64,000 bases of DNA. Source: a bacterium (GTDB lineage: Bacteria > Patescibacteriota > Patescibacteriia > 2-01-FULL-39-33). Position numbers and translations under genes: made by a program. Positions within the stretch are counted from its first letter, which is position 1. Every line of letters begins with the position of its first letter. Below are positions 20,620-21,601 of the stretch, piece after piece. The notes below the pieces were generated by a model that was given only the letters and a program-made list of their open reading frames with translations, was not told the origin of the DNA and ran no database searches. The DNA is taken from assembly GCA_037130015.1 (NCBI GenBank), contig JBAXTU010000002.1, positions 1,909-65,908 on the forward strand, read 5' to 3'.

Positions 20620-21601
20620 TTATATGTCGTTTAATAATTCTTTGGCTAAATAATTAATCTCTGTCAATTTATCCGGCTCATATTGTTTAATCAGCCCGCT
20701 GTAGCTTGATAAATTGCCTAAATTAATCCGCAGTCTCAATCTTTTGTTATTTCGTCTGCTAAGCCATCGGTTCCAAGGATAAATCACCACACCCAAAAAT
20801 TTCAATCCCCGATTCGCTTTTATGATTATATCATGGCGACAGTTTATATCAAGTCGCAAATCATGCTTTAAAAATTCTATGACATTAATCCTAATTTTAC
20901 CCAATTCTACCGCATTATCTGCTAAAATAATAAAATCATCACCATAGCGCAAATAATATTTGATTTTTAGATTATGTTTTACAAATCTATCCAGTTCATT
21001 GAGATAAATATTGGCAAAAATCTGACTGGTCAGATTACCAATAGGAATGCCACGGGCAGTTTTACTCTCTCTCTCTCTCGTATTGCCTGGGTTCGCTAAA
21101 AATTATTTTTCTCATTATGGCCAAAACCCGATCATCGCTAATTTTTCTGGCTATCAAACCAAACAAAATTCCCTGATTAACGTTGTCAAAAAATTTCTTT
21201 ATGTCGGACCGCCAAACATAACCGGCGGACTGGCGACGCAAAAATTCCTGCGTACGCTTTATAGCGCCAATAAGTCCTTTACCCTCGCGACACGACCAAG
21301 CGTCATAAATAAATGTCTTGTCAAAAATCGGCTTCAAGTATTCATAAAGCAAACGATGGACGACGCGATCACGCACCGGAGCAATTTTGATCAGTCGCCG
21401 TTTGTTATCAATCACGACAAACTGCCGATAATCGCCGGGCCGATAGTTGCCACTAATCAAATCCGCTTCCAACCGCCTTAGATTATTTTCTAAAAAATAT
21501 TCAAATTCAATAATTTCTCGACTGGCGATTTTTCCGCTCCTGAACAACCGCCAACATTTATACAAATTACTTAAACTAAAATTTATGGATTCACTGCCCA
21601 T
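20620..21601 (-). CDS. diversity-generating retroelement reverse transcriptase, reading frame interrupted by a +1 frameshift in a (CT)7 tract at 21065-21078
   Basis: N-part (21062..21601) has SNLYKCW..., KRRLIKIAPVRDRVVHRLL and DIKKFFDNV RT motifs; the continuation in the +1 frame reads RGIPIGNLTSQIFANIYLNELD (DGR-specific substitution of the QGxxxSP motif) and MRYGDDFIIL (YxDD); one extra AG unit would give a continuous ~326-aa protein. Confidence 0.85.
21065..21078. repeat. (CT)7 dinucleotide tract at the RT frameshift site
   Basis: read directly; frame A stops at 21062-21064; frame B is open from 21102 downstream. Confidence 0.9.

Follow-up and report, generated by a model that had tools for sequence, protein, structure and literature searches.

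The window, i.e. the whole stretch of DNA that was analysed (64,000 nt), contains on its minus strand the reverse transcriptase (RT) gene of a DGR that is split into two reading frames at a short dinucleotide repeat. The genes and features of this locus are listed below in window coordinates.

20620..21102, minus strand: C-terminal part of the RT in the +1 frame, with motif 4 (GIPIGNLTSQ), YGDD and the thumb
21062..21601, minus strand: N-terminal RT ORF of 179 aa with RT motifs 1-3, its TAA stop codon directly after the repeat tract
21065..21079, minus strand: (GA)7G dinucleotide repeat, a slippage-prone tract that sets the reading frame, and the sole period-2 repeat of the window
21089..21091, minus strand: CCC on the sense strand, 12 nt upstream of the tract; allele L206 has a single C here owing to a second-site 2-nt indel
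21585..21926, plus strand: avd accessory gene, divergent from the RT gene and overlapping its start codon region by 17 nt
21924..22043, minus strand: template repeat (TR), 120 nt
22096..24698, no strand: perfect tandem duplication that includes both target genes; period 1298 bp, 2.005 copies, junction overlap of 7 bp
22306..23292, minus strand: target gene copy 1, 328 aa, VR at 22307..22426, no family match
23604..24590, minus strand: target gene copy 2, identical to copy 1, VR at 23605..23724

On the plus strand, positions 21065..21079 read CTCTCTCTCTCTCTC, i.e. (CT)7C, which corresponds to (GA)7G (15 nt) on the sense strand. The N-terminal ORF (21601..21062) ends in ...SEPRQYERERE-TAA. The C-terminal frame is open from 21102 to 20620, reads ...NTRERESKTARGIPIGNLTSQ...YGDDF... 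(also given as ...ERESKTARGIPIGNLTSQ...YGDDF...) and lies at +1 relative to the upstream frame; the two frames overlap across the tract alone. The split, its coordinates, the overlap at (CT)7 and the +1 position of the downstream frame had been described in an initial annotation of this DNA and were confirmed by reading both strands. The same annotation had predicted a continuous RT of ~326 aa upon addition of one dinucleotide unit, which is borne out by translation with a length of 327 aa. A gain of 2 nt (one GA unit) or a loss of 1 nt results in this continuous ORF, so that a 15-nt tract specifies the truncated product of 179 aa and a 17-nt tract the RT of 327 aa. The merged protein gives one unbroken match to Pfam RVT_1 (residues 66-272, E 9e-18) and is collinear with 19 homologues across the junction, without any disruption of the alignment. 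In-frame homologues with 53-72% identity read ...RERERESK.GIPIGN at the site of the window's junction. The tract is a perfect simple sequence repeat inside an ORF, with a unit length that is not a multiple of 3. Since the 64-kb window contains no other period-2 repeat, the location of the tract at the frame junction is not a matter of chance. An RT composed of two polypeptides was also considered and rejected: the C-terminal frame has no ATG, GTG or TTG before 20952, a position past motif 4, and therefore no separate protein that includes motif 4 can arise from it.

In all three frames, (GA)n encodes alternating Glu and Arg, and changes in repeat length are therefore tolerated at the protein level. 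In the alignment of RT homologues, length varies most at the repeat loop. Compared with the solved DGR RT 8ub7, the loop adds 9 residues; 8ub7 lacks the repeat and has its alignment gap exactly there. In the AlphaFold model of P0002, one of the closest homologues (mean pLDDT 86.5), the (RE)n residues 161-169 have a pLDDT <50 and no secondary structure; this segment is one of the two least confident stretches of the model. Conservation at the level of the ERERE peptide, and not of the DNA repeat, was considered and rejected, since every instance is pure (GA)n at the DNA level and unrelated repeat units share the same loop.

The element around the split RT is a complete DGR. All sequence-level features of a DGR are present save an uninterrupted RT ORF, which is split in the window and in seven other assemblies and restored by one repeat unit. 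The C-terminal part carries the GIPIGNLTSQ and YGDD motifs of DGR-clade RTs. The closest solved RT is PDB 8ub7 (a 328-aa 'Reverse transcriptase', profile match E 3e-50), which we take to be the RT of Bordetella phage BPP-1. The Avd protein matches Pfam bAvd PF22296 (E 6e-11; 43.2 bits at a cut-off of 40) and NCBIfam DivGenRetAVD (E 7e-15, below the equivalog cut-off of that model). The VRs are located at the 3' ends of the two identical 328-aa target genes. The TR shares 83% identity with both VRs, and every core mismatch is found at a TR adenine, as an A-to-G or A-to-T change. The locus thus resembles canonical DGRs in motif 4 (IGxxxSQ), YxDD, Avd and adenine-specific TR/VR pairs at the 3' end of the target gene. 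It differs from them in the divergent orientation of avd relative to the RT gene and in the tandem duplication of the target gene in the window's assembly.

The two copies of the 1298-bp unit are without any difference, and the unit is single-copy in two further assemblies (L001 and L003). An inactive (OFF) state of the RT had been put forward in the initial annotation as the reason for the identical VR copies. This explanation is not needed and finds little support: the duplication comprises the entire unit, other assemblies of the organism are single-copy and the VR has diversified in the lineage (see below). Neither the target protein nor an 888-aa neighbour matched a family in the Pfam and NCBIfam searches. 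The Rfam search of the window returned an L10 leader elsewhere in the window and nothing else, and no second RT was found within the 64 kb by tblastn.

Repeat tract and VR in other assemblies of the lineage

Further assemblies of the lineage were looked up via the 179-aa and 110-aa ORFs in public assemblies. An identical 15-nt tract is present in 8 assemblies that derive from several runs and several assemblers or pipelines and comprise NCBI MAGs, ENA k141 contigs and Logan contigs (GCA_964512275.1, i.e. L001; ERZ27300140, ERZ27300181, ERZ27300155 and ERZ27299992; SRR7053317 and SRR7053514; and the NCBI contig encoding MEI6288037.1). The window and L001 align without gaps over 5339 bp with 17 mismatches. 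All 17 are located in the VR (22330..22415) and all 17 at TR adenines, while TR, avd and RT, including (GA)7, show no difference. Since the differences are confined to VR positions at TR adenines, the DGR has diversified recently. Judged from this alignment, the changes are characteristic of mutagenic retrohoming that took place once the two genotypes had diverged, and they indirectly suggest that mutagenic retrohoming is ongoing in the window's lineage. The VR was rewritten although the consensus RT is split in both the window and L001. A further RT encoded outside the 64 kb searched, where none was detected, might have acted in trans.

A different tract length was found in the JGI contig L206 (sample 3300021074). 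Over 1998 nt, this contig departs from the window sequence only by a pair of 2-nt indels separated by 12 nt. Its tract is (GA)8G (17 nt) and the upstream CCC at 21089..21091 is shortened to C. The two opposed indels leave the out-of-frame register of the window unchanged. Since L206 otherwise matches the window, apart from the CC deletion, the tract is the fastest-mutating site at the locus. An allele combining (GA)8 with an intact CCC would be the one that encodes the full-length RT (ON). No such ON-state allele of the window's lineage was found in a collection of 15 billion proteins.

Repeats at the RT loop across the family

The closest relatives, L212 and L213, have a homologous tract of 19 nt that is in frame, and the two closest in-frame homologues, P0002 and P0003, carry a pure (GA)9G there. 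Relatives that share about 70% protein identity have thus kept the tract in its position. A set of 80 loci from species-representative genomes (480 kb) was selected by protein similarity. Among these 80 loci, 7 contain (GA)n of 17-31 nt in the ~75 nt ahead of motif 4. Other repeats in or near the RT loop in this set include (AGAC)n of up to 98 nt, G10, G13, (AC)13 and (TC)16. Dinucleotide repeats of ≥12 nt are concentrated in RT ORFs, which hold 11 of the 13 in the 480 kb and make up 16% of the sequence (p 9e-8); the remaining two are distributed over about 400 kb outside RT ORFs.

Metagenome contigs were scanned irrespective of reading frame for GAGAGAGAGAGAG and, 6-36 nt further on, CCNATHGGNAAYYT. 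This yielded at least 120 loci, and nearly all of those listed are RTs with (GA)n in the loop before RT motif 4; viral contigs gave 0 matches to this repeat-plus-motif-4 pattern. Frames were assigned by tblastn with the N- and C-terminal parts separately, and 16 loci were inspected by eye. At most of the loci listed, the two parts lie in different frames. Clustering of the flanks at 97% identity grouped the matches listed into about 110 clusters or lineages. The distinct frame states among the matches listed are 20 in frame, 44 at +1 (the class of the window) and 35 at +2. In-frame states are thus fewer among the matches listed than the one third expected under unselected drift (20/99, p 0.005), and the excess of +1 over +2 is not significant (p 0.37). 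Among the matches listed, the shortest tract measures 13 nt and the longest 51 nt (median 20 nt). The window's tract, with 7.5 units, lies at the short end of this range, and its switching rate may therefore be low.

Four lineages besides that of the window include near-identical contigs, recovered from different samples, whose tracts are of unequal length. Elsewhere, tract length is reproduced across independent contigs (30 nt in L102 and L160, 17 nt in L123 and L140). The comparison across related genomes, which the initial annotation had suggested as a check, thus reveals variation in tract length both within the window's lineage (15 vs 17 nt) and in the family (13-51 nt). A further allele pair, L163 and L199, resembles the pair of window and L206 in that a second 2-nt indel beside the tract keeps the same out-of-frame register.

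The out-of-frame RTs are otherwise intact. Among the matches listed, the C-terminal frame past the tract is open for a median of ~160 codons at out-of-frame loci, compared with 161 codons at in-frame loci; a C-terminal part of <110 codons is found at 2 of 73 out-of-frame loci and an internal stop codon in the N-terminal part at 4 of 82. The wrong frame ends at a median of 41 nt past the tract (matches listed). A stop codon abuts the tract in the window and at 15 of the 82 out-of-frame loci among the matches listed, and at most of the others it follows after 14-226 nt. TR/VR pairs, defined by ≥80% adenine-specific mismatches and evaluated on contigs of ≥3 kb, are present at 30 of 44 out-of-frame and 12 of 16 in-frame loci among the matches listed. 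One of the four further lineages with variable tract length combines both types of variation. The TR is the same in its members L087 (18 nt, out of frame) and L110 (20 nt, in frame), and 18 of their 19 VR differences are located at TR adenines. The two form a suggestive pair, putatively OFF and ON, that differs in both tract length and VR.

A replicate at the protein level was obtained with the 179-aa fragment against 1.84 billion cluster representatives. Roughly 20-25 of the 131 representatives with an N-terminal part that reaches the loop go out of frame there. Their out-of-frame tails come after (RE)n, (HT)n, five- or seven-residue periodic repeats or G runs; the five- and seven-residue periodicities are consistent with repeat units of 5 and 7 nt. 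Other cassettes contain further repeats between avd and the RT gene.

A candidate ON/OFF switch and alternative explanations

Three readings of the split had originally been offered, namely a slipped-strand ON/OFF switch, a decaying element and a sequencing or assembly error. The comparative evidence favours the switch and speaks against the other two. We consider it reasonably likely that the tract acts as a contingency locus on the RT gene and that the majority genotype is currently OFF. According to this model, (GA)n between RT motifs 3 and 4 would be hypermutable, with slipped-strand mispairing at replication adding or removing GA units. Every third tract length would yield the full-length RT (for this allele 11, 17, 23 nt etc.). 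All remaining lengths would terminate translation (here after 179 aa), short of motif 4 and the YGDD catalytic site, presumably with loss of RT activity. The window would represent the OFF state, which would be the majority genotype in every assembly of its organism. Rare ON cells would produce RT, and the VR of the 328-aa target would be rewritten by adenine-specific retrohoming. A subsequent slip back to OFF, provided that the change is reversible within a population, would fix the new VR. The locus as a whole would be a contingency locus that gates a hypermutation engine, with a possible selective advantage.

In support of this model, the tract is polymorphic in the window's lineage (L206) and in the four others, and the more than 100 lineages span all frames. 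The features that characterize phase-variable genes are found at the sequence level, i.e. a non-triplet repeat within the ORF, toggling of the frame and length polymorphism between strains. A switch would explain why the tract is reproducible yet polymorphic, why all registers occur in >100 lineages and why both RT halves and the TR/VR pairs are kept. It would likewise account for VR turnover without any other sequence change. Taken together, these patterns point to a reversible switch rather than a dead gene.

Two observations fit the model less readily. The deficit of in-frame states requires the extra assumption that ON is costly, and the second 2-nt indels that preserve the register (window/L206 and L163/L199) are not predicted by a simple switch. 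Because the switch leaves both unexplained, a rival based on leaky -2 recoding stays alive, in which the out-of-frame allele is itself productive and tract length tunes the dose of RT instead of switching it off. When the ribosome has the last GAG in its P site and faces TAA in the A site, the tRNA-Glu could re-pair perfectly 2 nt upstream, and the product of this -2 shift would be exactly the protein of the (GA)8 allele (...YERERESKTARGIPIGN...); slippage of RNA polymerase could give the same result. Such recoding would be in line with a VR that diversified while the consensus was out of frame in all 8 assemblies, with the stop codon that abuts the tract in the window and at the 15 loci mentioned above, with the compensating indels that hold the +1 register in two allele pairs and with +1 as the commonest class (44/99 among the matches listed). 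A predicted downstream structure is also slightly commoner in the +1 class (11/45 vs 1/21, p 0.085). We nevertheless regard leaky recoding as unlikely. Each of the three registers is represented, +1 and +2 are statistically indistinguishable in frequency and 20 lineages among the matches listed are in frame, so that the shift direction is not conserved. At most out-of-frame loci among the matches listed, the stop codon lies well past the tract. No consistent frameshift-stimulating RNA structure was found after the tract, with a z score of -1.25 for the window. Transcriptional slippage is established for A/T runs but, to our knowledge, not for dinucleotide repeats, which argues against the RNA polymerase route. 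A more specific variant is a rheostat, in which -2 slippage by ribosomes or RNA polymerase allows tract length to set a graded, low RT dose and out-of-frame registers are selected. It would explain the compensating indels, the in-frame deficit and the VR turnover under an out-of-frame consensus, and it would represent a mechanism of dinucleotide-repeat -2 recoding that regulates a retroelement, but we judge it to be decidedly unlikely.

The repeat might also be a non-adaptive hotspot in an insertion-tolerant loop of organisms with small, possibly mismatch-repair-poor genomes, where loss and recovery of the RT would be random by-products of mutation, without selection for switching. The length variability of the loop in the alignment, its disorder in the structural model, the near-random frame states and the many repeat types at the loop are as expected under this explanation. 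It appears improbable in view of the scarcity of such repeats elsewhere, with a single one in the window and 2 of 13 outside RT ORFs in about 400 kb. Moreover, a repeat that is merely tolerated should stay in frame or be interrupted, whereas the tracts are perfect over 13-51 nt, and the tract persists at its site in relatives with about 70% protein identity. The additional repeats between avd and RT in other cassettes also speak against it. A fixed pseudogene in a decaying DGR would be compatible with an RT ORF that is broken in every assembly of the lineage, with the lack of an ON allele on record and with the identical VR copies of the window. It is very unlikely, as the RT has no lesion other than the tract, with an open and conserved half on either side of it. 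The VR was rewritten at 17 TR adenines between (GA)7-bearing assemblies that are otherwise identical over 5.3 kb, and the out-of-frame RTs of the family keep C-terminal parts of ~160 codons as well as TR/VR pairs at the in-frame rate. Finally, dinucleotide repeats can stutter in PCR-based library preparation and the source data are metagenome assemblies, so that an error in sequencing or assembly was considered. The identical 15-nt tract in 8 assemblies from different runs and pipelines, the reproducible tract lengths of independent contigs in other lineages (L102/L160 and L123/L140) and a tract far shorter than read or k-mer length make an error extremely improbable.

Relation to known switches and implications

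Programmed -2 and +1 frameshifting is known from other systems, with -2 sites in arterivirus nsp2TF and in tail-chaperone genes of phage Mu. The geometry of the window would allow such a shift, since the repeat lets tRNA-Glu re-pair perfectly 2 nt back while a stop codon occupies the A site. It differs in that the direction of the shift varies across the family; a conserved stimulatory element was looked for and not found. Reversible repeat-mediated mutator switches are known as well, namely tandem-repeat changes reported in mutL of Salmonella. Like these, the proposed switch would use a slippage-prone repeat to toggle a gene that supplies mutations, with transient hypermutation followed by stability. 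The mutL switches alter genome-wide rates, whereas mutagenesis would be limited here to about 100 nt of one target gene.

Simple sequence repeat contingency loci (phase-variable genes) are described in general terms in PMC3315296 and PMC11868660. Among them are CT/AG dinucleotide repeats in outer-membrane protein genes of Helicobacter pylori, tetranucleotide repeats in Haemophilus and Neisseria and the phase-variable mod methyltransferases ('phasevarions'). The RT tract resembles such loci in its perfect repeat within the ORF, in three frame states of which one is ON, in length differences between near-identical strains and in a gene that is otherwise intact. As in phasevarions, the gene that would be switched encodes an enzyme with downstream effects and not a surface protein. 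Unlike in known contingency loci, this gene is a DGR RT, and a stochastic switch would thus be placed over a second, targeted hypermutation system. The repeat is located mid-gene, in a surface loop between catalytic motifs, and not near the 5' end. In addition, the hosts are uncultured Patescibacteria of the CPR type and not host-adapted pathogens.

A full-text literature search returned no paper tying DGR RTs or Patescibacteria to repeat-mediated phase variation; Paul et al. 2017, on DGRs of CPR bacteria, was outside its reach. A DGR gated by a contingency repeat would therefore combine known kinds of elements in a new way, and no published description of it was found. How DGRs are restrained from continuous mutation of their targets is largely open, and a repeat-based stochastic switch on the RT would be a simple and testable answer that applies to a large group of uncultured bacteria. 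If it holds true, a fixed variant is handed down in most cells, and new ones are explored by a small minority that is constantly renewed. This would amount to bet-hedging on two tiers, with a targeted hypermutator under the control of a contingency locus.

Surveys of DGRs have discarded RTs with premature stop codons or truncations as pseudogenes, as stated for example in a passage of PMC5758913. About 80% of the repeat-bearing RTs among the matches listed are out of frame with intact halves and TR/VR pairs, and such surveys would therefore miss or misclassify a sizeable share of repeat-bearing DGRs.

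Second-site indels and sequence flanking the tract

In two allele pairs, a 2-nt change in the repeat is accompanied by a second 2-nt indel located 12-25 nt upstream. One pair is formed by the window and L206, another assembly of its lineage that carries (GA)8G, and the other by the related loci L163 and L199. As net length is preserved, both alleles of each pair have the same out-of-frame register. The second site that distinguishes the window from L206 is:

21089-21091: second-site 2-nt indel

No difference beyond the two 2-nt changes was found between these two alleles in about 2 kb, and L163 and L199 differ by one additional substitution in 2.3 kb. 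In the related loci L153 and L165, the (GA)n tract is immediately followed by the palindrome CCTGCCTGCCGGCAGGCAGG with a perfect 10-bp stem, which is absent from the window.

Other repeat units in RT genes and DGR cassettes

Repeats of various units are found inside the RT genes of related elements, several of them within 75 nt before motif 4.

Repeats inside RT genes (locus coordinates)
L032 3507-3604 and L038 3516-3548: (AGAC)n, within 75 nt before motif 4
L021 3530-3539: G10, within 75 nt before motif 4
L046 3489-3501: G13, within 75 nt before motif 4
L025 2035-2066: (TC)16, middle of the RT gene
L014 3376-3402: (AC)13, farther upstream, at about 360-400 nt of the RT gene
L053 3358-3380: (GA)11, farther upstream, at about 360-400 nt of the RT gene

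The (AGAC)n repeats in the RT genes reach 98 nt and are translated as TDRQ repeats. All seven of these RT genes are in frame, in a sample that was selected by protein similarity. The RT of L016 (Peribacteria) has an in-frame stop upstream of motif 4 (…RRVLSS*TIALL…, about 3450-3520). Either a lesion or recoding of the stop could account for it.

Repeats are also located elsewhere in the cassettes, and several points of DGR cassettes may be under repeat-based control.

Repeats away from the RT loop (locus coordinates)
L074 2923-2965: (TGTCC)8.6, between divergent avd and RT, or RT 5' end
L079 2928-2946: (GT)9.5, between divergent avd and RT, or RT 5' end
L042 2959-2968: G10, between divergent avd and RT, or RT 5' end
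L064, L067 and L076, about 2594-2606: G9-G11 runs, avd 3' end
L065 1545-1565: (GA)10.5, within or after avd

Gene order and further features of the window

RT, TR and target share one strand, and the accessory gene avd, in the region 21585-22043, is encoded on the other; it has a 17-nt overlap with the RT start region. This divergent arrangement is common to the window, L001 (same organism) and the closest relatives with an in-frame RT, L212 and L213. A transcript running from TR to RT would cross avd in antisense. Two further features of the window are:

17952-20618, minus strand: 888-aa ORF, beginning 1 nt past the RT stop (TAA-T-ATG)
22096-24698: perfect tandem duplication of the DGR target gene and its upstream spacer (period 1298 bp, 7-bp junction overlap)

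The 888-aa ORF, for which Pfam and NCBIfam searches returned no match, may be translationally coupled to RT and hence sensitive to the RT frame state. L212 encodes a 1025-aa ORF at the equivalent place after RT. The 1298-bp unit is present in one copy each in L001 and L003, both from the same organism as the window; the duplication could be a very recent event or an assembly artefact.

An Rfam search of the window matched only a ribosomal protein L10 leader (RF00557, 49 bits) at 10270-10410 on the minus strand. Several hexanucleotide arrays (GAAGGT, GAAGGA, GAAGGC) of up to about 21 copies are located at 39013-41287 and presumably encode Glu-Gly-rich repeats. Changes in their length would leave the reading frame intact, since the unit is a multiple of three.
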